This document shows, piece by piece, positions 9,717 to 63,958 of a stretch of 64,000 nucleotides of DNA; position 1 is the stretch's first letter; the number at the start of each line of letters is the position of its first letter. The notes under the pieces were generated by a model that made no database searches, was not told where the DNA came from, and worked only from the letters and a program-made list of their open reading frames with translations. Position numbers and translations under genes: made by a program. Source of the stretch: Candidatus Aminicenantes bacterium (lineage in GTDB: Bacteria > Acidobacteriota > Aminicenantia > Aminicenantales > UBA4085); contig CAWKFB010000007.1 of NCBI GenBank assembly GCA_963848835.1, positions 6,366 through 70,365 of the forward strand. Direction: 5' to 3'.

Positions 9717-10751
9717 CGAAATGCTCCTTGAGCTCCCCGGCCGGGATCGAGCGGATGATCGCCCGGCCGATCGCGCCTTTCAGGAGGACGAAGCGCACGG
9801 CATCACCGGCCCGTTTCTTGTCTTTGTCCATCGAGGAGAGGCGCGCGCCGCTGACCGGCCCGCGGACGTGGGAAGCCCGAGGGACCGGAGAAGCCGGATG
9901 AGCCGCGCGGCTTCGGTTTCGGGCAGAAGCCCCAGCCGGGCCGAGATCCGGGCGGCCGCGCACATCCCGACCGCGACCGCCTCGCCGTGGCGGAATCGCC
10001 CCTCTCTCTCCAGGGCGTGGCCGAAGGTATGCCCGAAGTTCAAGAGCCGGCGGGGGCCGGTTTCGAGCTCGTCGCGCTCGACGATCCGGGCTTTGAGGCG
10101 AAGCGATCGCTCGATGAGCCCGCGCGTCACGGCCGGATCCAGGGCCAGGGCTTTCCCGGCATGGCGCTCGAGGTCCCGGAACATGCCCGCGTCGGCGATG
10201 GCGGCGGATTTGACGATCTCGGCCAGTCCGTTGCGGACCTCGCGGCGCGGGAGCGTCTCGAGGAAGCCGGTGTCGATGAGGACGAGGTCCGGCTGTCGGA
10301 TCGTCCCGATCAGGTTCTTGAAGCGGTCGAGGTTGACGCCGTTCTTCCCTCCGAGGCAGGCGTCGGCCTGGGCCAGGAGCGTCGTCGGCACGATCACGAG
10401 CCGGAGCCCCCGCATGTAGAGGGCCGCGGCCAGGCCGGCCACGTCGCTCACGAGGCCGCCCCCCACGGCCGCGACGGTCGTCGTCCGGTCGGCCCCGGCG
10501 CGCAGGAGGCGCTTGAGCAGGTCATCCACCGCGGCGAGCGTTTTACGCCCTTCTCCCCGTCCGGCGAACAGCACGCGCCAGCCCGAGAAAAAGCTCCGGT
10601 GAAGGCCGAAGACGCGGCGGTCGGTGACCAGGATCGAGCCCGCCCGCGGGCAATGATCCTCGAGCCGGGCGGGCCCGTCGAGGAACGCGATCCGGGTGCG
10701 CGCGTCCGGCCTTCGGAGCCTCAATGGCCTCATTGGAGCCGCTCCCAACAT
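9703..10751 (-). CDS. aroB: 3-dehydroquinate synthase, frameshift near 9800-9850
   Basis: [44 protein letters not shown].., [21 protein letters not shown]. The C-terminus continues in the frame of ORF 9703..9963 ([25 protein letters not shown]). Confidence 0.75.
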
Positions 10752-38467: not shown

Positions 38468-39600
38468 TTAAAAATCCCTTTGAGCTTGTCGAGCGGAAGC
38501 GGCTCGGCGACGTGCTTCTCGTAGCCTTCGACGCGGGTGGCCTTGAACAGGGAGTTGAGGATGGCCTCTTCCGCCGCTTCGGCCGCGGCGAGAAAGAGCG
38601 GCGAGATATTCTCGTTGCGGAGGAGCGTCACGGTCCGCGTCGGCGCCGGCGCGCGGTGAGGGACGCGAACCTCGGATGCCGTGGAAAAGGCGATGATGAA
38701 ATCGCCGCTTCCGTTGGAGTTGTATCCGCCCGTCCGGTGGATGCCGATCCCGGCCCTCTGGGCCAGCCGCTCCAGGTTCCGGGCGTCGAGAGGGGCGTCC
38801 GTGGCGACGACGATCATGATCGAGCCCTGGACGACCGGATCGGACGGCCGCCCCGAATCGAACGGGAAGGCCGACGGGCTTTCTTTCAGGAGATCGGCGA
38901 CGCGCGTCCCCGCGATCTGGAAGACCCCGCCGTGGTTCGATTGGACGATCACGCCGACTGTGTATCCGCCCTGGCGGGCCGGGAGCTTCCGCGAGCTCGT
39001 CCCGATGCCGCCCTTGTACCCGTAGCACATCGTGCCCGTGCCTGCCCCGACCGATCCCTCCGCGACCGGACCGCCCGCCGCTTTGCGGATCGCCTCGAGG
39101 ACGTGCTCTTTCCGGACATGCCGGCCGCGGATGTCGTTCAGGAAGCTGTCGTTGGTCTCTCCGACGACGGGATTGACCGACACGACGCCCTCGTTCCCCG
39201 GCAGGCCGAGGATGTAATCCAGAACGGCGTCCGCGGCAGTCGGGACGCTGAGCGTGTTGGTCAGGACGATGGGCGTCTCGATGGTCCCGATCTCGCGGAC
39301 TTGGTTCGTGCCGGTCAGCTTGCCGAATCCGTTGGCCACGAAGACCGCTCCCGGGACCTTGTCCTGGAAGATGTTCCCCGTATGGGGCAGGATGGCCGTG
39401 ACGCCGGTCCGGACGTCCGTACCCTCGATGATCGTGACCTGTCCGACCGCCACGCCCGCGACATCGGTGATGGCGTTGAGCGGGCCGGGCTCGAGGACGC
39501 CCGTCTTGATCCCGAATTCCCGGGCCCGAGGCCGTTCGGCCGGGGTCTGGACGGCGGCCGCGGCGAACGCGGCGAGGATGAGCAGCGCGAAAATCTTCAT
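38464..39600 (-). CDS. DmpA/ArgJ-fold peptidase S58 (L-aminopeptidase / D-Ala-esterase-amidase-like), secreted
   Basis: Signal peptide; GVAVGQVT..TGVTAILPH.. and the self-processing site region GAGTGTMCYGYKGGIGTSS. Confidence 0.75.
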   Translation of the reverse strand: MKIFALLILAAFAAAAVQTPAERPRAREFGIKTGVLEPGPLNAITDVAGVAVGQVTIIEGTDVRTGVTAILPHTGNIFQDKVPGAVFVANGFGKLTGTNQVREIGTIETPIVLTNTLSVPTAADAVLDYILGLPGNEGVVSVNPVVGETNDSFLNDIRGRHVRKEHVLEAIRKAAGGPVAEGSVGAGTGTMCYGYKGGIGTSSRKLPARQGGYTVGVIVQSNHGGVFQIAGTRVADLLKESPSAFPFDSGRPSDPVVQGSIMIVVATDAPLDARNLERLAQRAGIGIHRTGGYNSNGSGDFIIAFSTASEVRVPHRAPAPTRTVTLLRNENISPLFLAAAEAAEEAILNSLFKATRVEGYEKHVAEPLPLDKLKGIFK

Positions 39601-40285
39601 GGTTTGCTCCCTGCCCCGCTATCTTACCGCTTGGGTTTCTCCCCGACAAGTGCGACGCATAAGACCGGGGCTCCCGGAGGGCTTCCTGATCGGGACGCGG
39701 ATTTTTCCCAGCGAGAAAAATCCGCTCCCCGTGCTCGCTCGCTCTCCTCTCCCTCCGGTCGCGGAACCGTGCCCGCTTCGCTGCGCTGGCCCGCTCAGGG
39801 AGCCCCCCTCGCGCCCCGGATACATCAGACCGATTCGTCGGCGTTCGGGATGGGAACGGAGCGAATTCCGTCCCACGATCGGCCGTCGGGCGCGCGAGCC
39901 TGACGATCGGATGACTCGGTCGATGAGCGCCGGGACGCTTTTAAGACTCATCATATTCATCTACCCCACCTACCGCCCCTAAAACTAGGGGCGGACTGGC
40001 GGTAAGCGTCCCTCCGAGCACGTCGCTCATCAGGGTGACGCAGCGAATCGGCCGAGTCAGTCCGCGTCAGGATTTGCGAAAGCTAGCGCACTATCGCGGG
40101 CCGGTCGCGTTTTATATTGCGGGGCGCGAGGGGTGAGGGTTCGAGGGACATACGGAGGCGAGCGGGCACGGATTCCCAGCCGCAGGCTGGGAAGAGCGAG
40201 CCGGAGAACGAGCCGGTTCCCTCGCCGGGGGAACCGGCGTGCCCGAGAACCCTTACCCCGGAAGCCCCGTGTTATAATCGCGGCG
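39600..40285. repeat. repeat-dense non-coding island with members of a hairpin-forming intergenic repeat family
   Basis: 685 bp without a credible ORF; contains CCCCTCGCGCCCC (about 39793) and its inverse GGGGCGCGAGGGG (40112), plus hairpins CCGCCCCTAAAACTAGGGGCGG and CCGGTTCCCTCGCCGGGGGAACCGG. Confidence 0.5.
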
Positions 40286-40993
40286 ATGAGCGAAGAGAAA
40301 TACCTGACGGTCGGGGCGCTCGAGCGCGTCCCGGGCCTCGTCCACGGCTTCGGCACTCGGTCGCTCGACCTTCCCTCGCTGCGGCGGCTCGCCGCCGCGG
40401 CCCGCTGTCGGATCGTCATGCTCTCCCAGGTCCACTCCGCCGACGTCGTTATCGCCGGTCATGCCCCTCGGCCGCGCGCGCCCCGCCCCAAGGGCGACGC
40501 CCTGATCACGGATCGGCCGGGACTTCTCCTTGTCATCAAGACCGCGGATTGCCTTCCCGTCCTTCTCGTCGATCCGGAGAAACGCCTCGCCGCGGCCGTT
40601 CACGCCGGATGGCGCGGCACGCGCTTGCGGATCCTGGAGAGGACCGTCGCCGCGCTTATTTCCCGCTACGGCAGCCGTCCTTCCGACCTCCTTTCCGCCT
40701 TCGGCCCATGCATCGGCGCGGCGTGCTACGAGGTCGGGGAGGACGTCCGCCGGGAGTTCGTCTCCGCCGGCCTGTCGCGACGCGATTTCCGCAGCTCGCC
40801 GGCCCGGCCCGGCGCGTTCCTCTTAGACCTGGCCGGGGCGAACCGGCGGCAGCTCGTTTCCCGCGGCCTCTCGCCGCGCCGGGTCTTTGCCGCCGACTCC
40901 TGCACGCACTGCGACCCGCGCCTCCTCTCCTTCCGGCGCGACCGAGACGCTCACGCCCGCCTCTACAATTTCATCGGCTTCCGCCCCGATTGA
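40286..40993 (+). CDS. pgeF: YfiH/PgeF-family (DUF152) purine nucleoside phosphorylase / peptidoglycan editing factor
   Basis: MSEEKYLTVGALERVPGLVHGFGTR..MLSQVHSADVV..TADCLPVLL..HAGWRGT..CIGAACYEVG..CTHCD. Confidence 0.75.
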   Translation: MSEEKYLTVGALERVPGLVHGFGTRSLDLPSLRRLAAAARCRIVMLSQVHSADVVIAGHAPRPRAPRPKGDALITDRPGLLLVIKTADCLPVLLVDPEKRLAAAVHAGWRGTRLRILERTVAALISRYGSRPSDLLSAFGPCIGAACYEVGEDVRREFVSAGLSRRDFRSSPARPGAFLLDLAGANRRQLVSRGLSPRRVFAADSCTHCDPRLLSFRRDRDAHARLYNFIGFRPD

Positions 40994-41099
40994 CGCCAGT
41001 CCAGCAGGCGGTCCGTCCACAGCTACTCCCCGAAATTTCAAGATTGCCCTTGCGCAAAGGGGATCTTCGAAATTCGCCGATGGCAAACGGAAGCTTGCC

Positions 41100-41265
41100 G
41101 AAACGCCGGCCCCGGGGCGCGAGGGGGAAGGATTCGAACCACGAAATTCTGAAAAACTCTCCTAGCGGAGGGATTGCCCATGCGCGAACCTCAATCAAAC
41201 GGGGCGCGAGGGGATAGGGTTCCCGGGAGCCCCGCTCATGTGAGCGTGGGGCAATCCCGGAGCGT
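41100..41265. repeat. two adjacent copies (one partial, one full) of the intergenic repeat family
   Basis: Full copy at 41166-41262: GGAGGGATTGCCC ATGCGCGAAC .. GGGGCGCGAGGGG ATAGGGTTCCC GGGAGCCCCGCTC ATGTGAGCG TGGGGCAATCCCGGAGC. Terminal GGGATTGCCC/GGGCAATCCC inverted ends. Confidence 0.5.
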
Positions 41266-41338
41266 CGACTTTTAGGCCGAATTTCGGTATGATGGACCCT
41301 GCTCGCGAATTCCCAGGAACCCTAGATCACGGTGCAAC

Positions 41339-48449: not shown

Positions 48450-48884
48450 ACGGGGCTCCGGGGTCGCCCAACGGCTCACGAAGGATGTTCGCCAGGGAAC
48501 CCCCTCGCGCCCAAGCAGGAAGTATCCGCGCAAGTCTGCGATAGCGACGGGACCCGGCTGCGGCCGCTGATGGTTCGCTGCGTCACCTGGCGAGTCGACT
48601 CCGCTCCCGTCCGCCAGTCCGAGCAGCCGTTTTGCGGAATTGGCTCCCGTTGGGGTGATCAGGCCGTCGGAGCAGGGTGAGGCAGATTCTCAGACTAATT
48701 CGAAAAACCGAGGAGGCGGCAAGTTCGAAATATGGTAGGGCGAGGGGAGTTCCCTTCGGAAGCCAGCGCAGCGGAGCGGGCATGGTTCCTCGCCCAAAGG
48801 GAGAGGAGAGCGGAGCGAGCACGAGGAGCGAATTTCCACGCTGGAGGAAATTCGCGTCTTCCGAAGGGAATTCCCCGCAGCCCG
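48450..48884. repeat. repeat-dense non-coding island (intergenic repeat family, inverted copy at 48452-48525; second copy at about 48741-48800)
   Basis: Reverse complement of 48452-48525 reads GGGGCGCGAGGGGGTTCCCTGGCGAACATCCTTCGTGAGCCGTTGGGCGACCCC; hairpin CGAATTTCCACGCTGGAGGAAATTCG at 48841-48866. Confidence 0.45.
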
Positions 48885-52967: not shown

Positions 52968-53006
52968 CCGGCCCGGCGCCCTTCGGGGCGCCGGGCCATT
53001 TTTTTA
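52968..53006 (+). terminator. rho-independent terminator after the TonB-dependent receptor gene
   Basis: CCGGCCCGGCGCCCTTCGGGGCGCCGGGCC followed by ATTTTTTT. Confidence 0.8.
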
Positions 53007-54126
53007 ATCGGGGGACGTAGCACTCATTCCCCGATTTCGTATAACAAAAATCGTCAGATGGCGGCTTTTATTTCTCTTTATCGGGGGACGTAGCACTTAT
53101 TCCCCAATTTTGTTCTAACAATAAACGTCAGATTGGGGGCTTTTATTTCTCGGGATCGAGGCCCTGGAAAACGGGCGATGTCAAAATCTCCATCCTTCTT
53201 TTCCTTCCCGCCGACTTTGGCGCGAGAGACCGCCCTGCCAGCCTTTCGAGATTTTCGATGAATTCCTTTGATCCAAGCGGCCGTCCTGTTCGCGCGTGGA
53301 GCTTGATCTCTCTTTCGAGTTCAGGTGAATCTTCCGCCTGGAGAAAGAGGGACCAATCCGGAACATCAATGAACTCGCGAATATCCGTCAGCCGGAGAAG
53401 TGATTTCCGCGTTCCGGATACGTGCTCCGCGGCGCTCGACCAGGGATAGTCTTCAGCCTTTTTAACGAGGCCGGCTTTGACCGGATTTCGCTCCGTATAT
53501 CTAACGCAATTGAATAGATAGGCGGCATCCATTGGAAAGGAATGATAACGGCCATCCCAGAGATTGCCGGTCCAGCTCTCCCTGGCGTTGATGATCAGAG
53601 TGTATTTCCTCTTTATTTCCGCAATACATTTGGCGAAGCTTGATTCCGTCTTGGGGATTGCGTTCAGGTGGAAGTGGTTGTTCATAAGGCAATACGCTAG
53701 GAACACGACACCGAATTTCTCTCCGCATTCATCTAAAAGCTTGAGAAAGAGCATTTTATCCGAGTCGAGGATGAAGACGTCGGCTTTATGATTCCCCCGA
53801 TTATAGATGTGAAACGGAACACCTGGGAAAACGACTCTCGCAATTCTGGGCATCGGGTTCATCTCCAGATGTCGATATTGAGCTCAATAAAACGAACGTG
53901 TCCCGGAATGTCAATTTCTCACTCTGGAGACGGAAACAATGGCTATTCATCGAAGGAATATATTGGGCTTCGGTTAGCCCATAATAGATTGATATAAAAT
54001 GAGTTACCTGTGTTAAGCAAAGAATCAGAATTCAACACTCTGGCGGGGTAAAAAGAATCCGAGCAGTGGTTATTACGGCGAGAAGTGATTGACGAAATTT
54101 GCTTACGAAATCGGGGAATAAGTGCT
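53007..54126 (-). mobile_element. REP-RAYT unit: IS200/IS605-like Y1 (HuH) REP-associated tyrosine transposase flanked by REP hairpins
   Basis: Two direct ~72 bp units carry the REP ATCGGGGGACGTAGCACT(C/T)ATTCCCC (53007-53035, 53080-53106). An inverted copy ATCGGGGAATAAGTGCTACGTCCCCCGAT lies at 54098-54126. The block is AT-rich compared with its surroundings. Confidence 0.75.
53143..53862 (-). CDS. REP-associated tyrosine transposase (RAYT, Y1 HuH transposase IS200-like)
   Basis: FHIYNRGNHKADVF..LAYCLMNNHFHLNAIP (HuH motif), catalytic Tyr region ..RYHSF..; 239 aa. Confidence 0.8.
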   Translation of the reverse strand: MNPMPRIARVVFPGVPFHIYNRGNHKADVFILDSDKMLFLKLLDECGEKFGVVFLAYCLMNNHFHLNAIPKTESSFAKCIAEIKRKYTLIINARESWTGNLWDGRYHSFPMDAAYLFNCVRYTERNPVKAGLVKKAEDYPWSSAAEHVSGTRKSLLRLTDIREFIDVPDWSLFLQAEDSPELEREIKLHARTGRPLGSKEFIENLERLAGRSLAPKSAGRKRRMEILTSPVFQGLDPEK

Positions 54127-54137
54127 ACGTCCCCCGA

Positions 54138-56402
54138 TTATTTCTTAATAAGACGCGCGAGCTCGGCGCGGGCGCCGGCGATCTTTTCTTCCGGCTCGCC
54201 CTGCGGCGCCTGGAGGTACTGCTCGAGGCAGCGGATCGCGTCGGCGGTCTGCCCCTTCTCCCGGTAGGCGAGGGCCAGGTTGTACAGCGCGTCGGGATTG
54301 GGCCCCCCGGCGAGGATGCGGTTGAAGCACTCGATGGATTTGTCGAAATTCCGGGTCATCCCGTAGGCGATCCCGAGCTGGCGGAGGAAGCCGATCTCCT
54401 TTGGATAGTCCCGGGAAAGCCTTTCCAGGACCCCGATCGCCTCCTCGAGCCGTCCGCTCGTGGCGAGATTTCCCGCGTAAGCGGTCCGAAGGAACTTGTT
54501 CTCCGGCTCGGCCGCCAATCCCTCCTCAAAATAGGCGCTCGCTTCGGCCTTTTTCCCCGTGTTGTCCAGGATGACCGCGACGGCCGTCAGGGCGTCGATC
54601 GACTTCGGGTTTCGTTGGAGCGCCTCGCTCATCGTCCCGAACGCTTCCTGCGTCCGTCCCTCGACGAGATACGTGTAGCCGAGCCGCAGCAGCAGCGTCT
54701 CGTTCCCCGGGATGCGCTCCAAGCCGAGCTTGAGCGTCGCCACCGCGGCGTCCATCTTCTTCTCCCGGGCCTGGACCAGGGCCAGGCTGACATACGAGGA
54801 CGCGGAAAACGGCCGGAGGCCGACCATCCTTTCATATAGGGCGGCCGCCGTGGCGAGATCGCCTCGGAATTCCGCGTTTTCGGCGTCCTGGTACATTTTC
54901 AGCTCGTCGCGCTTGTCCTTGGGATCGGGCTCGAGGGCCGAAGCTCCGCTCGCGCCCGCCTCCCCGGCTCCCTTATCCGAGAAGCCGACGTATCCGAGCG
55001 AGCGGAGCCGGCTCTCTTCCTCGGCGGTCAGCGTCCTCTTCCCTGAGGCGGCGCCGGGGGCGAGGCTGTCCTTGACCGTCCGGTCGAGCCCGTCGCGCAT
55101 CTCCCGGACGGTCCGCGCCTCCCCGACGATGCGGTTGTCCCGCTCGCCCGGGTCGCGGCCGAGGTCGTACAGCTCCTCCTTGGGGGCGCGGATGTATTTC
55201 CAGTCCTTGACGATGAGCCCGCTGAGCGGAGCCCAGCCGAAATTCTCTCTCGGGTAGTACGTCTCGATATAAGTATCGAGATCGGCCCGCTCCTTTTTCC
55301 GGATGTAGGGGAGAAGGCTCACGCCTTGCGTTCCCTCCGGAGCGGGGCGGCCCATCAGATCGAGAACGGTCGGCATCAGGTCGATCAGCCGGACCCGGGG
55401 CGCGACGACGGCCCCCGCCGGCAAATGCCCCTCGGCCGCCATGATGAGCGGCACGCGGAGCGTCTCGTCGTAGAGGAAGACGCCGTGCCCCCATTCGCCT
55501 TTGTCGCCCAAGCCCTCGCCGTGGTCGCCGGCCACGACGACCACGGTCCGCCCGAGGAGACCGCGGTCGCGGAGCTTGGCCATGACCCGGCCGAAGACGA
55601 AGTCCATGTACGCGATCTCTCCGTCGTACGGCCGGCCGGAGAATTCCTCGCTGTACGGCGAGGGCGGGTTGTAGGGGATGTGGGGATCGAAGAAATGGAC
55701 CCAGCCGAAGAACGGTTCGGCCGGGTTGGCGTCCATCCAGTCCGAAAAGAGGCCGTAGACCTGTTCGGCCCGCCGCTCGGCGTTCGCCGCCTTGAACGGC
55801 GATCCTTCCTGGTAGTTGTCGTCGTAGTGGTCGAAACCTTGGGCCAGCCCGAAGCGCGAATCCACCGAGAACGAGGCGACGAAGGCCGCCGTGGCGTAGC
55901 CGTCGGCCTTCAGGACCTCGGCCAACGTCGTCCGGTCCGCCGCAAGCTCATACGCGCCGTTATTATGGACGCCGGTCGCGACCGGGTTCTGCCCGGTCAT
56001 GATCGAGGCGTGGCTCGGGAGCGTCAGGGGGACCGGGGCGTAGGCGTTGGAAAAGCGCACGCCGGACGCGGCCAGAGCGTCGAGATTGGGCGTCTTGACT
56101 CCCGCCGCCCCGTAGCATCCCAGATGGTCGGCCCGGGTCGTGTCGAGGGTGATGAGCAGGACGTTGAGGCGCTCCCCGCGGCTGACGGCCGGGCCCCCGC
56201 GGAGAAGGAAGAAAGCCGCGATCGCGGCCAGGATCAGGACGGCCGCGATGCCTAGGGAAGCTGTTCTTCGCGGCGGGCGCTTTCCGGCCGGCGCGGGAGC
56301 GGGGGCCGGTCCGGACGCGCGGACGGCCGGCTTGGGCCCATCGGGGCGGGGCCCCTCCGTTCGGTCCGGCCGGCGCGGCTTGTGGTGCTTGCGTTTCGCC
56401 AC
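54138..56402 (-). CDS. sulfatase-family hydrolase (alkaline-phosphatase superfamily) with C-terminal TPR repeats, membrane-anchored
   Basis: TM helix; LNVLLITLDTTRADHLGCYG.., SHASIMTG, GDHGEGLGDKGEWGHG; C-terminal ~300 aa of TPR. Confidence 0.8.
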   Translation of the reverse strand: MAKRKHHKPRRPDRTEGPRPDGPKPAVRASGPAPAPAPAGKRPPRRTASLGIAAVLILAAIAAFFLLRGGPAVSRGERLNVLLITLDTTRADHLGCYGAAGVKTPNLDALAASGVRFSNAYAPVPLTLPSHASIMTGQNPVATGVHNNGAYELAADRTTLAEVLKADGYATAAFVASFSVDSRFGLAQGFDHYDDNYQEGSPFKAANAERRAEQVYGLFSDWMDANPAEPFFGWVHFFDPHIPYNPPSPYSEEFSGRPYDGEIAYMDFVFGRVMAKLRDRGLLGRTVVVVAGDHGEGLGDKGEWGHGVFLYDETLRVPLIMAAEGHLPAGAVVAPRVRLIDLMPTVLDLMGRPAPEGTQGVSLLPYIRKKERADLDTYIETYYPRENFGWAPLSGLIVKDWKYIRAPKEELYDLGRDPGERDNRIVGEARTVREMRDGLDRTVKDSLAPGAASGKRTLTAEEESRLRSLGYVGFSDKGAGEAGASGASALEPDPKDKRDELKMYQDAENAEFRGDLATAAALYERMVGLRPFSASSYVSLALVQAREKKMDAAVATLKLGLERIPGNETLLLRLGYTYLVEGRTQEAFGTMSEALQRNPKSIDALTAVAVILDNTGKKAEASAYFEEGLAAEPENKFLRTAYAGNLATSGRLEEAIGVLERLSRDYPKEIGFLRQLGIAYGMTRNFDKSIECFNRILAGGPNPDALYNLALAYREKGQTADAIRCLEQYLQAPQGEPEEKIAGARAELARLIKK

Positions 56403-57530: not shown

Positions 57531-58547
57531 CTAAAAGCTCTCTCGGCGGAGGGATTGCCCCGGAGCGAACATTGGGAGGGGGGCCCGGCTTCCGGGGGAA
57601 CCGCAGAGGTTCCCGTGAGCGAGGGGGCAATCCCGAAGCTTCTTCCGCTTCGAGACCGTGCCCTTGTCCGCCGAGTTCGCCAGGGTCACGACGAGAACGC
57701 GCGACTCGGGAGCGGGGGCGAACTCGAGGTCGATGACGTAGAATTCTCCGCGCAGGCCCTCGACCTTCTCTTCGGTCAGGGAGAGCGGATACGCGCTCGA
57801 GCTTTCCTGGGTCTTGGCTCCGGACGCGTCTTCGCCGATCAGCGTGACCGTCAGCGTCGTCCGCAGCTCCTTGTTGTCCCCGGAGGTCATCCAGATCTTG
57901 GCATAGGGAACCCGGAGGCGCACGCCGAGCCCCCCGGCCGGGCTCTTCTTCTCGACCGCCAGGTCGAATTCCAGGAGCGAAGCCCCCGCCTCGACCTGGG
58001 GCTTCCACGCGAGCTGCGTCTTCATGATCGTCGTGAGCTGGGCCGGGCTGGACGGATCGAGCCGGTAGTTCCCGGTCCAATCCGGATCGACGAAGACGAT
58101 GGGAAAGAACCCGTAATACCAAACCTCCGTCGGGATGCCGTAGAACGTCACCCCCCGCGGGTAGACCTCGCGCTCGGAAGGCGGGCCGAGGAGGATGTAG
58201 ATCCGGCCGCGGTCCTGGAGCCAGCCCGGCTCGCCGCCGTCGGTGAAGAGGTGATTGGCCTCGTCGATGCGCTGGAAGTACTGCGTCTTGAACTCGTTCT
58301 CCTCGGTGTCCGGGTCGGGGTCCCGTTTCTTCCAGAACTCCTCCATGAAGGCCGGCCGCTCGGCCGACGGCAGATTCAGGAAGATCCGGCGCTCCTCGGC
58401 GGTGACGAGATAGCGGACCTTGGAGATGAATTCGCGGCTCTCGGGCTCCATGCGGCGGATGAGACGGTACGAGCCGCAGGCCGAGGACAGGACGGCCAGA
58501 AGGAGGGCGAGGGCGGGGACGAGCCTGGGCGCGCGGTCCAGGGTCAT
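57531..58547 (-). CDS. GWxTD domain-containing lipoprotein
   Basis: Lipobox LSSAC; ..EFWKKRDPDPDTEENEF..GWLQDRGRIYILLGPP matches the GWxTD signature. The C-terminal about 30 codons are encoded by an intergenic-repeat copy. Confidence 0.65.
   Translation of the reverse strand: MTLDRAPRLVPALALLLAVLSSACGSYRLIRRMEPESREFISKVRYLVTAEERRIFLNLPSAERPAFMEEFWKKRDPDPDTEENEFKTQYFQRIDEANHLFTDGGEPGWLQDRGRIYILLGPPSEREVYPRGVTFYGIPTEVWYYGFFPIVFVDPDWTGNYRLDPSSPAQLTTIMKTQLAWKPQVEAGASLLEFDLAVEKKSPAGGLGVRLRVPYAKIWMTSGDNKELRTTLTVTLIGEDASGAKTQESSSAYPLSLTEEKVEGLRGEFYVIDLEFAPAPESRVLVVTLANSADKGTVSKRKKLRDCPLAHGNLCGSPGSRAPLPMFAPGQSLRRESF
57547..57640. repeat. copy of the intergenic repeat family embedded in the 3' end of a CDS
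   Basis: GGAGGGATTGCCCC GGAGCGAAC .. GGGGGAACCGCAGAGGTTCCC GTGAGCGA GGGGGCAATCCCGAAGC. Confidence 0.5.
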
Positions 58548-60727: not shown

Positions 60728-62029
60728 CTAAAAAAGGGACATCTGTCCCCCGCCGGGGGCATCGGAGGCGCCGTCGGGATCGAACAGCCGGATCGTCCCG
60801 TATTCGCCGTCGTGGCCCGGGGAGATCTTCACCAGCCCTTTGCGCATCCGCTCGATCCCGTCGGCCACCCGCTCCGGAGAGATCCGGCGGAGGTCGGCGG
60901 CCGGAGTTTCCGTCAGGACGGTCTGCTCGTCGCCGAACTCGTGGATGAACCGGAAATAAAGCTCCCAGACGCCCTGGCTCTCGGGCGTCTTCCCGCACGC
61001 TTCGGCGATGACCTCGTTGAGGGGGATGAGGCGGCGGAAGGGTGCGCGCGGGGCGGCGTCCCGGACCTCGTCCGCGGTCCGGTCGGCCAGCTCCTCGACC
61101 CGGTGGGCCACGCCGATCGTGAGCTTCTTTCCGCAGGACGGGCAGATGTCTCCGAGCCGGAGGGACTCGCGCGGATCGAGGACGACCGCGCACTTACGGT
61201 GTCCGTCCCAGTGATATTTGCCTTCTTCGGGAAAGAACTCGACCGTGCCGAGGAAGCGGGCCGGGTCCCGGCTCTTGATCGCGTCGATCATCCCCTTGTA
61301 GCTGAAGTCCGCGTCGAAGATGTTGGCTTCGCGCCCGATCTTGGCGGGGGAGTGGGCGTCCGAGTTCGAGATCAGGGCGAAGCGGTCGAGGGCGGACAGC
61401 CGCCAGTTCATGGCCGGGTCGGACGACAGGCCCGTCTCCAGGGCGAAGAGGAACGGCGTCATCTCCTCGAAGCACTCCTCGATGGCGTCGAACCCGGAAT
61501 TCGCCCCGAACAGGGAAAACCAGGGGGTCCAGATGTGGGCGGGAATGACCGCGCACTGGGGACAGAGATCGGCGACCAGGCGGACGAATCCTTTGACGTC
61601 CATGCCCAGGATCGGCCGTCCGTCCGAACGGAGGTTGCCCAGCCCGGAGAGACGAGTGTTGATCTTATCCACCGACTCGAAATCCGGGGCCAGGAGGAGA
61701 AGATGAACCTTCCGGACGCGGCCCTTCTTCGAATAGATGAAGCTGATCTCGGTCGAAAGGACGAACGAGACGTCGTCGGGCCCCAGGGTGACGGACCGGA
61801 AGGGCTCCCAATCGGGCCGCTGGGGATTCCTCAGCCGGAAGAATCCGTTCCCCTTGGGCTCGAGCTTCTCCCGGGTCAGGAAGAACCATTCCGGGTGGGT
61901 GAAGTCGGCCGAGGCGAGCAGCGAGATGCCCTTGACCTTGCTCCAGTACGCCAGGGCGTCGAAGGTCATGTCCCGCGACGTGGCCCGTGAGAACTTCGAG
62001 TGGATGTGGAGGTCGGCGGTGTATTTCAT
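60728..62029 (-). CDS. endonuclease Q (EndoQ)-like PHP-domain protein with CxxC zinc finger
   Basis: MKYTADLHIHSKFSRATS, PAHIWTPWFSLFG, SNSDAHSPAKIGREANIF, GKYHWDGHRKC..ICPSCGKKL, C-terminal GHDGEYGTIRLF. As recalled, these parallel the archaeal/Bacillus EndoQ motifs. Confidence 0.65.
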   Translation of the reverse strand: MKYTADLHIHSKFSRATSRDMTFDALAYWSKVKGISLLASADFTHPEWFFLTREKLEPKGNGFFRLRNPQRPDWEPFRSVTLGPDDVSFVLSTEISFIYSKKGRVRKVHLLLLAPDFESVDKINTRLSGLGNLRSDGRPILGMDVKGFVRLVADLCPQCAVIPAHIWTPWFSLFGANSGFDAIEECFEEMTPFLFALETGLSSDPAMNWRLSALDRFALISNSDAHSPAKIGREANIFDADFSYKGMIDAIKSRDPARFLGTVEFFPEEGKYHWDGHRKCAVVLDPRESLRLGDICPSCGKKLTIGVAHRVEELADRTADEVRDAAPRAPFRRLIPLNEVIAEACGKTPESQGVWELYFRFIHEFGDEQTVLTETPAADLRRISPERVADGIERMRKGLVKISPGHDGEYGTIRLFDPDGASDAPGGGQMSLF

Positions 62030-62085
62030 GCGTCGCGTGGTCTCCGTATGTTTAGACCTTTTCGCGCCCCAATTCAAGTACAATC

Positions 62086-62925
62086 GGCGAGGGCGGTCTC
62101 GCTCGACGGGAAATCCTGACGCTCTGCCTGGCGCTCGAGGCTCCTAGGCGCTGCGCCCTCCGCGCCCCGATGGTCTCCTCGCCGTCCCTTTGTATACGCC
62201 TCAGCGTCTGCAATATGGTCACGTGCTCAAAGCTCGGGATCGCCCCACGCTCACGATGGAATGCTCACCTCCGGGAGCCCTCGGCTCGCCGCCAGATCAG
62301 GCAAGACGCGTCCCCGATGTTCGCTTATCTGCGATCGCTCTCGCAAGCTCCCGCCGACGGCCACGCCGCTGGCCGATTCGCCTGACGTCACTCTGACGAG
62401 GGTCCGCAGGGAAAGCTCCGCGCATCATCCGAGTCGGCCGCACGGTTCAGGCCCGCAGCGAACAGGAGCCGCCGAACCTGTTTCTTCGGCAGGGGAACCG
62501 GTATCGGCGGTTCCCCCCGAAGCGGAACCCCCCTCCACTCTGCACGATCGTCGGTCGTTGTCTGGCCGAAGGAAGCAAGCCGTGTGGCGGGCGATTCGAA
62601 AAAATTCTCTGTAGGGAGGCGAGGTGCGGTTCGAGCGACATCGGGAAATCCCAGCTCTGCGTCCCGAGCTCCGACGGGAAGCCCCGCGCAGCGGGGCTTC
62701 GCCAAATGAAGTGACGCGATTTTTTCTTCGACCATCATATCTGGAAAGATCAAACGGGCGAAGGGATCGCCCGTGAGCGAACATCAGGAGGGGGGGCCCC
62801 GCATTAATTCGGGGGGGAACCAGAAGGGTTCCAACGTGAGCGATGGGCGATTCCGAAGCCCTCCTAGGAGCTCGAGTGACAGGCAGAGCGTCAGGATTTC
62901 CCGTCGAGCGAGGGGCCGCCCTCGC
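62086..62925. mobile_element. transposase-less element bounded by ~65 bp terminal inverted repeats (MITE-like), internally full of the intergenic repeat family
   Basis: 62100-62130 CGCTCGACGGGAAATCCTGACGCTCTGCCTG is the exact reverse complement of 62890-62920. Flanking TCGGCGAGGGCGG and CTCGAG..CTCCTAGG blocks extend the TIR to about 65 bp. No protein-like ORF inside. Confidence 0.55.
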
Positions 62926-63037
62926 CGAATTCCCTTTGATAATTGCCCCCATGTTGCTACAATGAAGGCGCCGGGAGCAGGCCCGGAGAGAGGCGATCCT
63001 GGCATAAAAGTTGCATCTGAATCATCCGGAGGCGGTA

Positions 63038-63958
63038 ATGAAAAGATCCCTCATATTCGTCCTCAGCCTGGTCCTTATCGCCGGCGCCCTGTCCGCCCAA
63101 GCCTACCGGGGCGGCCGCGGCCGGCTGACCGGGCTGGTCATGGACCAGAAGGGCCAGCCCATCGAGGGCGTCACGGTCAAGCTCTTCGCCGTCAAGCACC
63201 AGGACGGTTTCTCGGTCCAGACCGGGCCGGATGGGAAGTGGGCCGCGACGATGCTGAGCGGCGGGGAATGGAACCTGGATTTCGAGAAATCGGGCTACGC
63301 CCCGTTCAGGACCGCGGTATCGGTCAAGGAGCTCGAGCGGCTGCCCGATATCAAGGTCGTCCTGCAGAAGGTCGAGGGGCTCGTCCTGACCGATGAGCTC
63401 AAGAAGCTCCTCGGCGACGCCAACCAGCTCTTCGATCAGAAGAACTTCGCCGGCGCGCTCGAGGGATACAACGCCATCCTGGCCAAGTACCCCGACGCGT
63501 ACATCATCTGGCAGAACGTCGGCAACTCCTACTTCGCCCAGGAGCAATATGACAAGGCGGAGGAGGCCTACCTCAAGGTCCTGGCCAAGAGCCCGGCCGA
63601 CACCACGGCCATCGTGGCCGTCGGCAACTGCTATTTCAACCGGAACCAGACCGAAAAGGCCCTCGAATGGTACGGCAAGGTCGACTACACCAAGATCACG
63701 GACCCGACCGTGCTCTTCAATATCGGGCTGAATTTCTCGAACCTGACCAAGTACGATGAAGCCTTGAAGTATTTCAAGCAGTCCGTCGAGGTCCAGAAGA
63801 CCTTCGAGGACGGTTTTTACCAGATGGGGCTGACCTATGTCTCGATGCAGAAGACGACCGAAGCCATCGCGGTCTTCGAGCAGTTCCTGAAGCAGTTCCC
63901 GGATTCCCAGAAGACCGACCAGGTCAAGGGCTTCCTCGACTACCTGAAGAAAAAATGA
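63038..63958 (+). CDS. secreted CarboxypepD_reg-like domain + TPR repeat protein (paralog of 56413..57378)
   Basis: Signal peptide MKRSLIFVLSLVLIAGALSAQA; GLVMDQKGQPIEGVTVKLF..; TPR (NVGNSYFAQEQYDKAEEAYLKVLAKSP..). Confidence 0.65.
   Translation: MKRSLIFVLSLVLIAGALSAQAYRGGRGRLTGLVMDQKGQPIEGVTVKLFAVKHQDGFSVQTGPDGKWAATMLSGGEWNLDFEKSGYAPFRTAVSVKELERLPDIKVVLQKVEGLVLTDELKKLLGDANQLFDQKNFAGALEGYNAILAKYPDAYIIWQNVGNSYFAQEQYDKAEEAYLKVLAKSPADTTAIVAVGNCYFNRNQTEKALEWYGKVDYTKITDPTVLFNIGLNFSNLTKYDEALKYFKQSVEVQKTFEDGFYQMGLTYVSMQKTTEAIAVFEQFLKQFPDSQKTDQVKGFLDYLKKK

Follow-up and report, generated by a model that had tools for sequence, protein, structure and literature searches.

The intergenic region and its pieces

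This work concerns the DNA between two divergent genes in a 64 kb stretch, referred to here as the window, from a member of Candidatus Aminicenantes, an uncultured lineage known only from metagenomes. One of the genes (60728-62029, minus strand) encodes a protein of the endonuclease Q (EndoQ) family, PF27218, and the other (63038-63958, plus strand) a protein with tetratricopeptide repeat (TPR) and CarboxypepD_reg domains, the N-terminus of which, judged by eye, resembles a signal peptide. These Pfam domains agree with the position that a preliminary description of the locus had given to a long inverted repeat, namely between an EndoQ-like gene and a gene for a secreted TPR protein. The intergenic spacer measures 1008 bp, and most of it is occupied by a cluster of repeats at 62084-62928 whose composition and origin are the subject of this text.

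A repeat search of the window places the arms of the inverted repeat at 62098-62139 and 62871-62912 (42 nt, 95% complementary, separated by 731 nt). They share a perfect core, CTCGCTCGACGGGAAATCCTGACGCTCTGCCTG, which had been reported as 31 bp but is 33 nt long by exact matching; it lies at 62098-62130 on the plus strand and at 62880-62912 on the minus strand, the latter approximately 10 nt away from the 62890-62920 first assigned to it. The proposed extension of the repeat to some 65 bp is borne out by BLAST, which pairs 62084-62148 with 62928-62863 across 67 aligned columns at 91% identity, giving arms of approximately 65 nt. The DNA that they bracket, put at about 760 bp in the preliminary description, ranges from 714 bp between the extended arms to 749 bp between the perfect cores. 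The 33 nt core is found nowhere else in the 64 kb, even allowing 3 mismatches, with a chance expectation of 0.

Comparison of this cluster with related loci leads to the reading, to which we assign a probability of roughly 60%, that it is a mosaic of non-coding hairpin repeats in which the long inverted repeat represents the same end of two opposed copies of one element resembling miniature inverted-repeat transposable elements (MITEs). This element is termed E, and its two putative copies E1 and E2. In the feature list that follows, as in the rest of the text, labels beginning with L denote loci from relatives or from metagenomes, and the names of the pieces follow this reading.

62048-62077, minus strand: inferred EndoQ promoter, TTGAAT-17-TAAACA, six bases outside arm L; conserved in relatives and missed by the consensus scan
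62084-62148, minus strand: arm L, putative arm-type terminus of the truncated, inverted E2; adjoins the EndoQ promoter; terminal motif GGCGAGGGCGGTCTCGCTCGA; aligns with the arms of L084, L093 and L095
62149-62233, minus strand: inner extension of E2, its arm-proximal part colinear with the flank of the single arm of L093
62234-62340, minus strand: degenerate module A of E2 (nhmmer 62340-62234, E 6.9e-14), colinear with the module A of E1
62341-62460, plus strand: piece X, common to L084, L086, L093, L095 and an island at about 40 kb (nhmmer E 3e-19)
62461-62615, no strand: window-specific filler between X and P, holding a GGGGAACC...GGTTCCCC hairpin at 62479-62529
62616-62700, plus strand: P, putative P-type terminus of E1 and imperfect partner of arm R; terminal motif GGCGAGGTGCGGTTCGAGCGACAT; GC-rich hairpin at its end (62675-62697)
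62701-62754, no strand: spacer of E1, higher in A+T, within a 338 nt block common to L095
62755-62862, plus strand: module A, a hairpin repeat of about 100 nt in the apex of E1 (nhmmer E 2.5e-24, hit 62758-62859)
62863-62928, plus strand: arm R, putative arm-type terminus of E1; adjoins the TPR promoter; recognised by the inverted repeat, the arm alignment and the match to L095
62936-62963, plus strand: TPR promoter from the consensus scan, TTGATA-16-TACAAT with a TG that extends the -10, eight bases beyond arm R

With regard to coding content, the GC content at third codon positions (GC3) is 0.55-0.72 in all six frames of the interior, compared with 0.89 in the neighbouring genes, and the four longest interior open reading frames (ORFs) have no match to a Pfam domain. 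The interior is non-coding, in keeping with the degenerate pseudo-ORFs of the preliminary description; that these ORFs might be pseudogenes was considered and rejected, since they lack both a Pfam match and a codon-position signal in GC content.

The promoters of the two flanking genes are situated outside the arms and directed away from the cluster. That of the EndoQ gene is inferred from its conservation, and that of the TPR gene is kept as TGTTGYTACAAT in L088, L090 and L093. No sigma-70-like promoter was found between the arms in the consensus scan. In L088, which lacks the cluster, the two -35 boxes are approximately 20 nt apart. The repeat cluster thus fills precisely the gap that separates the -35 boxes of the two divergent promoters, and transcriptional read-through across the whole region is unlikely.

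Several copies of an intergenic repeat had been noted inside the bracketed DNA, and module A confirms this, with copies at 62758-62859 (plus strand) and 62340-62234 (minus strand, degenerate); its two other matches in the window, both on the plus strand, are at 57546-57639 and 41165-41263. In total, nhmmer found 9 matches in the 1.07 Mb of related DNA that served for the nhmmer, terminus-motif and transposase searches. They follow the pattern GGGATYGCCC...GCGAAC...two small hairpins...GTGAGCG...GGGCRATYCC, and the outer stem and inner hairpins are maintained by compensatory changes. The copy at 57546-57639 lies inside the 3' end of a gene with a GWxTD domain (57531-58547, minus strand), where it displaces the ancestral stop codon and lengthens the tail by approximately 33 residues relative to the orthologues of 303-306 residues in L083, L088 and L090. 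This insertion, together with contig breaks at the edge of the module, suggests that module A behaves as a mobile insert. In module A, the GGGGAACC-loop-GGTTCCCC motif of the filler reappears as the second inner hairpin. Besides its copy at 62479-62529, the motif recurs intergenically in several Aminicenantes species, in L005 (7445-7472), L057 (7727-7751), L017 (107-131) and L059 (10304-10330).

Piece X has further nhmmer matches on the minus strand at 40081-40024 and 39929-39875, and another in L095 (10253-10174). Part of the core of the inverted repeat had been said to recur at about 40060; the sequence GCGTCAGGATTT is indeed present at 40064-40075, but it belongs to the first of these X copies and not to a copy of the arm.

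Element E in the window and in related genomes

When the left part of the cluster is reverse-complemented and set against E1, three matches appear in colinear order: the arms themselves (62863-62928 with 62148-62084, 91% identity), the 3' end of module A (62829-62856 with 62261-62234) and its 5' end (62758-62785 with 62344-62316). That side of the cluster is therefore taken as a second, inverted and truncated copy, E2 (62084-62340), made up of arm L, the inner extension and the degenerate module A, without P. The inner neighbours of the two arms differ: arm L is followed by GCGCGGAGGGCGCAGCGCC, as is the single arm of L093, and arm R by module A, an order also seen in L084 and L095. It follows that E2 was not freshly copied from E1. 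The relationship of E2 to L093 rests on an alignment of L093 9802-9881 with window positions 62165-62086 at 85% identity, with GCGCGGAGGRCGCAGCGCC common to both; past 62165, in the GAGCACG... stretch, colinearity was judged by eye, with no tool alignment.

A copy of the element outside the EndoQ-TPR spacer was reached by a protein search with the translation of a spurious ORF that spans arm R, module A and P. The search returned one protein, P0241, on contig L095 from another metagenome, whose flanking genes are paralogues of the window genes and only 58-62% identical to them. Positions 9860-10186 of this contig match 62929-62594 of the window at 85% over 338 nt, covering the arm, module A, the spacer and P, followed by an X-like stretch. 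No second arm was found in L095 within 3.5 kb, and the repeated unit therefore has one arm. At the orthologous locus, single-arm copies are present in L084 and L093; the L084 contig ends within the repeat region, and the one arm visible in it is paired with P. Further copies of the terminal repeat, for which the preliminary description had proposed a search, are absent from the rest of the window and present, as single arms, in these three loci.

The two ends of E are related to each other. Their first 12 nt are identical (GGCGAGGGCGGT), and across approximately 50 nt they are about 73% alike, with a P-type terminus GGCGAGGGCGGTTCGAGCGACAT..GGGAAATCCCAGCTCTGCG and an arm-type terminus GGCRAGGGCGGTCTCGCTCGA..GGGAAATCCTGACGCTCTGCC. 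In the 1.07 Mb of related DNA the terminus motif occurs in E copies only, besides 4 matches in coding sequence to a relaxed 12-nt pattern, none of which extends into the terminus. When E is folded by itself, whether from the window (62608-62932), from L084 or from L095, P is predicted to pair with the arm as a long imperfect stem that carries module A at its apex. The arm and its P partner are approximately 180-250 nt apart in L084, L093, L095 and E1 of the window. The length of the element is 313 bp in the window (62616-62928), approximately 305 bp in L095, 236 bp in L084 and approximately 240 bp in L093, where module A is missing. E thus combines inverted-repeat termini, small size and a lack of coding content with copies at non-orthologous loci (one extra locus, L095). 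Taken together, E and module A are dispersed, non-coding and bounded by inverted repeats, they nest, and their presence varies from one close relative to another.

The arm is also well conserved. The two window arms share an identical 32 nt core, from which L084 and L095 each differ at 1 position and L093 at 3, while the EndoQ genes of the arm-bearing genomes in this comparison are only 85-89% identical at the nucleotide level. The arm core is conserved beyond the host genes, and this strong conservation of the arm terminus would account for the perfect 33 nt core; gene conversion between the window arms may have been an added contributor.

The orthologous loci were collected with the EndoQ protein as query, which gave 80 loci, most of them carrying the label Candidatus Aminicenantes, placed within or close to the Acidobacteriota; closer relatives, with EndoQ genes 82-89% identical to that of the window at the nucleotide level, were reached by protein database search. 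Empty sites, which the preliminary description had proposed to look for, do occur. In L088, with an EndoQ gene 88.6% identical, window positions 62079-62941 (863 nt) correspond to only 19 nt, the whole TPR-EndoQ spacer of L087 is 132 bp, and in L005, L009 and L037, which retain the TPR orthologue as divergent neighbour, the spacer is 134-236 bp. Other spacers are differently filled: L090 and L091 hold one module A and a fragment of another repeat, L083 and L085 hold a different repeat, module C, and L084, L086 and L093 hold pieces of the window's element, with interiors that differ among relatives by insertions of 150-300 nt. The approximately 860 bp of the window are therefore lineage-specific extra DNA, and the TPR-EndoQ spacer is a hotspot that collects different repeats. 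BLASTN of the whole intergenic region against the 80 EndoQ loci (65-75% protein identity) gave no match, and E and module A are therefore regarded as confined to a narrow clade.

The position of the arms in these relatives agrees with two separate copies. L086 retains a 19 nt arm remnant beside the EndoQ promoter, L084 has a full arm 40 nt further away, and in L093 the full arm is on the TPR side; arms on one side only, at the same position relative to the promoter, are what two separate copies would predict. P is 94% identical to that of the window in L086 and 87.5% identical in L093. The filler at 62461-62615 is missing in L084 and L086, and L093 has approximately 300 nt of AT-rich DNA in its place. 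In L084, the order X-P-A-arm matches E2 of the window in position and orientation.

Two loci with an identical TPR protein, L093 and L094, diverge within the outer end of the arm (L094 1-27 compared with L093 9855-9881), L094 reading ...CTCTCACAG|CCCTTGCCCGG and L093 ...GAGCGAGACCG|CCCTTGCCCGG; the first 27 nt of L094 match no other sequence compared. This difference points to a structural polymorphism at the arm boundary within one species. Five of the loci (L084, L085, L086, L092 and L094) are short-read contigs that terminate in the repeat cluster or at its edge, at position 1, and L092 begins 8 nt past the module A of L090, which is of the same species. The repeats therefore fragment metagenome assemblies of this clade.

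From these observations a course of events may be proposed in which clade-specific repeats gathered in the DNA separating the -35 boxes of two back-to-back promoters, a gap permissive to insertions. E would be a MITE-like unit of 240-315 bp with two imperfect terminal inverted repeats of approximately 50 nt, P-type and arm-type, predicted to pair into a long stem; its apex would often hold a nested module A, and X would travel upstream of P. E1 would be complete, with X at 62341-62460 followed by the unit from P at 62616 to arm R at 62928, pointing toward the TPR gene. E2 would be truncated, running from arm L at 62084 to the degenerate module A at 62340 and pointing toward EndoQ, and the outward-facing arm-type termini of the two would together make the 67 nt inverted repeat. 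Both E and module A would have spread by transposition, with the conserved termini as probable recognition sites for a transposase. The cluster would have no host function beyond spacing the two promoters approximately 860 bp apart.

Origin of the paired arms

Several observations weigh against this proposal of two copies of E. One copy only (L095) was found outside the orthologous locus. No transposase or autonomous element with E termini was found in the 1.07 Mb of related DNA, and none is adjacent at any locus, so that the cognate transposase which the preliminary description had hoped to identify through the terminal repeats did not emerge. A target-site duplication is not visible at any junction. 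The DNA to the left of P is common to the copies, consisting of X and of ..GAGA|GGCGAGG in L084, L086 and L095, which blurs the left edge of the mobile unit; X apparently travels with E, and the unit may be asymmetric and not a classic MITE bounded by terminal inverted repeats. Furthermore, the X-P blocks of L084 and L086 lie in opposite orientation relative to EndoQ, and a true inversion would give the same. Finally, the perfect 33 nt core of the window arms could equally stem from a recent inverted duplication in situ.

The last point belongs to a scenario in which the second arm arose on the spot by template switching or recombination, leaving a palindrome, EndoQ <- arm-P-X | X-P-arm -> TPR, that has since decayed. 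Long palindromes are unstable and decay asymmetrically, and the lineages could have kept different parts of this one: X-P-A-arm is directed toward EndoQ in L084, and X-P toward TPR in L086, L093 and the window. L084 36-228 aligns with L086 233-41 in reverse while their flanks on the EndoQ side align forward, the two X-P blocks being 78% identical in reverse orientation. Set against this are the different inner neighbours of the window arms and the different positions of module A, by which a simple duplication would not be recent, and the dispersal of E to another locus in L095, given which a second insertion suffices. An origin by duplication in situ is doubtful.

The preliminary description had favoured a different view of the same DNA, a single non-autonomous transposon of approximately 845 bp, in effect a large MITE, bounded by the 65 bp arms and inserted as a unit. 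At 845 bp, 62084-62928 falls at the upper end of bacterial MITE sizes, has inverted termini and contains no transposase gene. The extra DNA relative to L088 (62079-62941) coincides with the outer ends of the arms (62084-62928) within approximately 5-13 nt, the arms are 91% identical with a perfect core, the interior is non-coding, and the island at 39.6-40.3 kb is laid out in a similar manner, with inverted hairpin modules around an X copy. Nevertheless, the window, the 1.07 Mb of related loci and a scan of JGI metagenome contigs with an exact 20-mer of the arm yielded no second two-arm copy. That scan had low sensitivity, since it would miss copies 90% identical and it missed L084 (a JGI record whose membership of the collection was not checked), the arm of which differs by 1 base; it returned two chance matches only, within WD40 coding sequence. 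In L095 and L093 a single arm is paired with P, and likewise in L084, whose contig ends in the repeat region. The arms of the window have different inner neighbours, module A is placed differently in the two halves, and relatives hold an arm on one side only (the EndoQ-side remnant of L086, the full TPR-side arm of L093). At the outer ends of the whole segment, where the preliminary description had suggested looking for a target-site duplication, the flanks ...AAGTACAA| and |ATTCCCTTTG contain no direct repeat, and none appears on comparison with the empty site of L088, although erosion is possible. Insertion as a single unit is therefore held to be unlikely, and so is its weaker form, in which two arm-type termini would now let the whole composite be mobilised. 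What endures of the MITE-like interpretation is that the arms are termini of a dispersed, non-coding MITE-like repeat; the segment of approximately 840 bp is not one such element, given the single-arm units in L084, L093 and L095 and the inversion of E2.

An intergenic segment flanked by inverted repeats between divergent genes also recalls an invertible switch, in which recombination between the arms would flip the interior of approximately 715 bp and alter expression of EndoQ, TPR or both; the opposite orientation of the interior blocks of L084 and L086 relative to EndoQ would fit such a flip. However, a flip would not re-aim a promoter, because both promoters are outside the arms and none was found inside, and the annotation of the syntenic loci L088, L090 and L093 shows no recombinase gene in the 10 kb to either side. 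L093 has one arm only, two inverted copies account for the opposite orientations, and short metagenome contigs can mis-join across inverted repeats. A switch of this kind is very improbable. The arm of L084 was also considered as a crossover chimera, an idea that was dropped when an alignment of five arms revealed family-consensus states shared with L093 and L095.

Least credible of all is a large structured non-coding RNA, or a 5' untranslated region, with a terminal stem of approximately 65 bp, which had been offered as the alternative to a transposon. The whole region folds far more stably than shuffled controls, with z -10.3 and -12.2 for the two strands, and the nested modules are more stable on the plus strand; such z-scores are, however, expected of any cluster of inverted and hairpin repeats. 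Rfam 15, applied to the whole window at the gathering threshold and to 61950-63100 and 39600-41300 by E-value, gave no match in the region at gathering score, and the E-value scans returned only noise (best E 0.61 in the region, with no family at E < 0.1, and noise likewise in 39600-41300). The promoters point away from the cluster and none was found inside it, and relatives with an EndoQ gene 82-89% identical either lack the region or have wholly different DNA there; the interior varies among relatives by insertions of hundreds of nucleotides.

The cluster is an ordinary repeat cluster of the MITE or bacterial interspersed mosaic element (BIME) kind, neither one 840 bp transposon nor a giant RNA. 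For annotation, the consequence of reading it as two opposed copies of E is that a striking 65 bp inverted repeat may be a by-product of two small repeats lying head to head in a promoter gap that tolerates insertions.

Other structured repeats and comparison with known systems

Module C is a three-helix repeat of approximately 135-150 nt with copies in the window at 48736-48884 and 40122-40267 (plus strand) and 39668-39816 (minus strand). It is also found in L016, L021, L023, L035, L038, L039, L043, L051, L054, L062, L085, L086 and L093, which represent many Aminicenantes species. Compensatory changes occur in 19 of its 33 predicted pairs and 90.6% of cells are paired, a value reached by 0 of 500 shuffles and well above the 37-58% of slid-partner controls. 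Its invariant single-stranded motifs are GCGGGCAYGG, GAGAGCG and a CGCYG loop, and it has no Rfam match. A covariance model, R1, gave 21 matches in 1.02 Mb, mostly on the EndoQ strand and several directly after the EndoQ stop codon. The possibility that E is a module C split by insertion was dropped, since R1 misses both P and the arm and the resemblance is loose.

The island at 39620-40280 consists of an inverted pair of module C copies, 66% alike, around an X copy split by an insert of approximately 95 nt; it lies upstream of a gene starting near 40287, and its architecture resembles that of the EndoQ-TPR cluster. In more distant species, the TPR-EndoQ spacer holds a different long hairpin element (L004 3498-3946 and L002 3706-4255), the apex of which resembles the core of module A (GGAGGGGGGCCCCG..GGGGGGAACC..GGTTCCCC). 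The apical region of L002 is approximately 100 nt longer than that of L004, and their stems differ by a compensatory change, AAGGAGGC/GCCTCCTT compared with AAGAAGGC/GCCTTCTT.

A broader interpretation would treat E, A and C as a system of conserved multi-helix, multi-copy elements across Aminicenantes that goes beyond selfish DNA, either as a new structured mobile element or as functional RNA modules co-transcribed with their neighbours. It draws on the covarying stems and invariant single-stranded motifs of module C and on an arm terminus more conserved than the host genes, and its RNA form additionally on the 16 of 21 module C matches that lie on the EndoQ strand. If the mobile form were true, an enzyme recognising folded single-stranded ends would be implied, and the two-arm structure of the window would be a natural composite. 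This remains a tentative and rather doubtful proposal.

A full-text literature search found no paper on interspersed repeats in Aminicenantes. Genomes of this lineage carry several families of structured interspersed repeats, marked by fast turnover, nesting, ORF extension and breaks in short-read assemblies. Their description may be of use for the quality control of metagenome-assembled genomes and for the study of repeat dynamics, and it reveals no new mechanism.

Among known systems, the closest parallels are bacterial MITEs such as Correia/NEMIS in Neisseria, ERIC/IRU and the RPEs of Rickettsia (PMC3184786, PMC2229807). Like these, E and module A are small (100-315 bp), non-coding and bounded by inverted repeats, with long predicted hairpins; they are dispersed intergenically, present or absent between close relatives, and inserted into one another. 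The module A copy that lengthens an ORF at the 3' end of a gene is reminiscent of RPEs in particular. In contrast to MITEs, E has no visible target-site duplication, and no parent insertion sequence or transposase was found for it; its terminal repeats are long (approximately 50 nt) and only about 73% alike, X appears to travel with one end, and the 840 bp structure comprises two copies and not one element.

The low-GC segment at 53005-54140 holds a Y1_Tnp gene of the IS200-like, RAYT type (53146-53862, minus strand), flanked by three ATCGGGGGACGTAGCACTYATTCCCC hairpins, two on one side and one inverted on the other, that occur nowhere else in the window. A Y1_Tnp gene is present at the same place in L090 and L091, between genes for a TonB-dependent receptor and a sulfatase, and in L093 just past its sulfatase-like gene. 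A RAYT link to the repeats of the window was considered and dropped, the flanking hairpins being unrelated to them and not dispersed in the window.

Clusters of repetitive extragenic palindromes (REPs), including BIMEs and REPINs, are mobilised by RAYT (Y1) transposases (PMC2817692, PMC3116915, PMC3337134). The Aminicenantes repeats share with REP and BIME clusters their arrangement in intergenic mosaics with alternating hairpin orientation (for instance 39668-40267 and L051) and their structured, covarying stem pairs, and the single-copy Y1 transposase gene of the window, flanked by its own GTAG-containing hairpins, recalls the REPIN/RAYT system. REPs, however, are 20-40 nt long and often carry a GTAG/CGTC tag, whereas A, C and E are multi-helix units of 100-300 nt, and the hairpins flanking the Y1 gene are unrelated to them in sequence. 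With invertons, the locus shares a divergent gene pair separated by an intergenic segment of a few hundred bp with inverted repeats on both sides; it differs from them in having no promoter found inside and no recombinase gene nearby, and in having relatives with one arm only. Lastly, the BOX elements of Streptococcus pneumoniae are modular boxA-boxB-boxC repeats (PMC3049150). The repeats described here are likewise modular, combinatorial, non-coding and intergenic, with stable structures, but they bear no sequence relationship to BOX elements and come from another phylum, and their modules nest within one another instead of forming linear A-Bn-C arrays.

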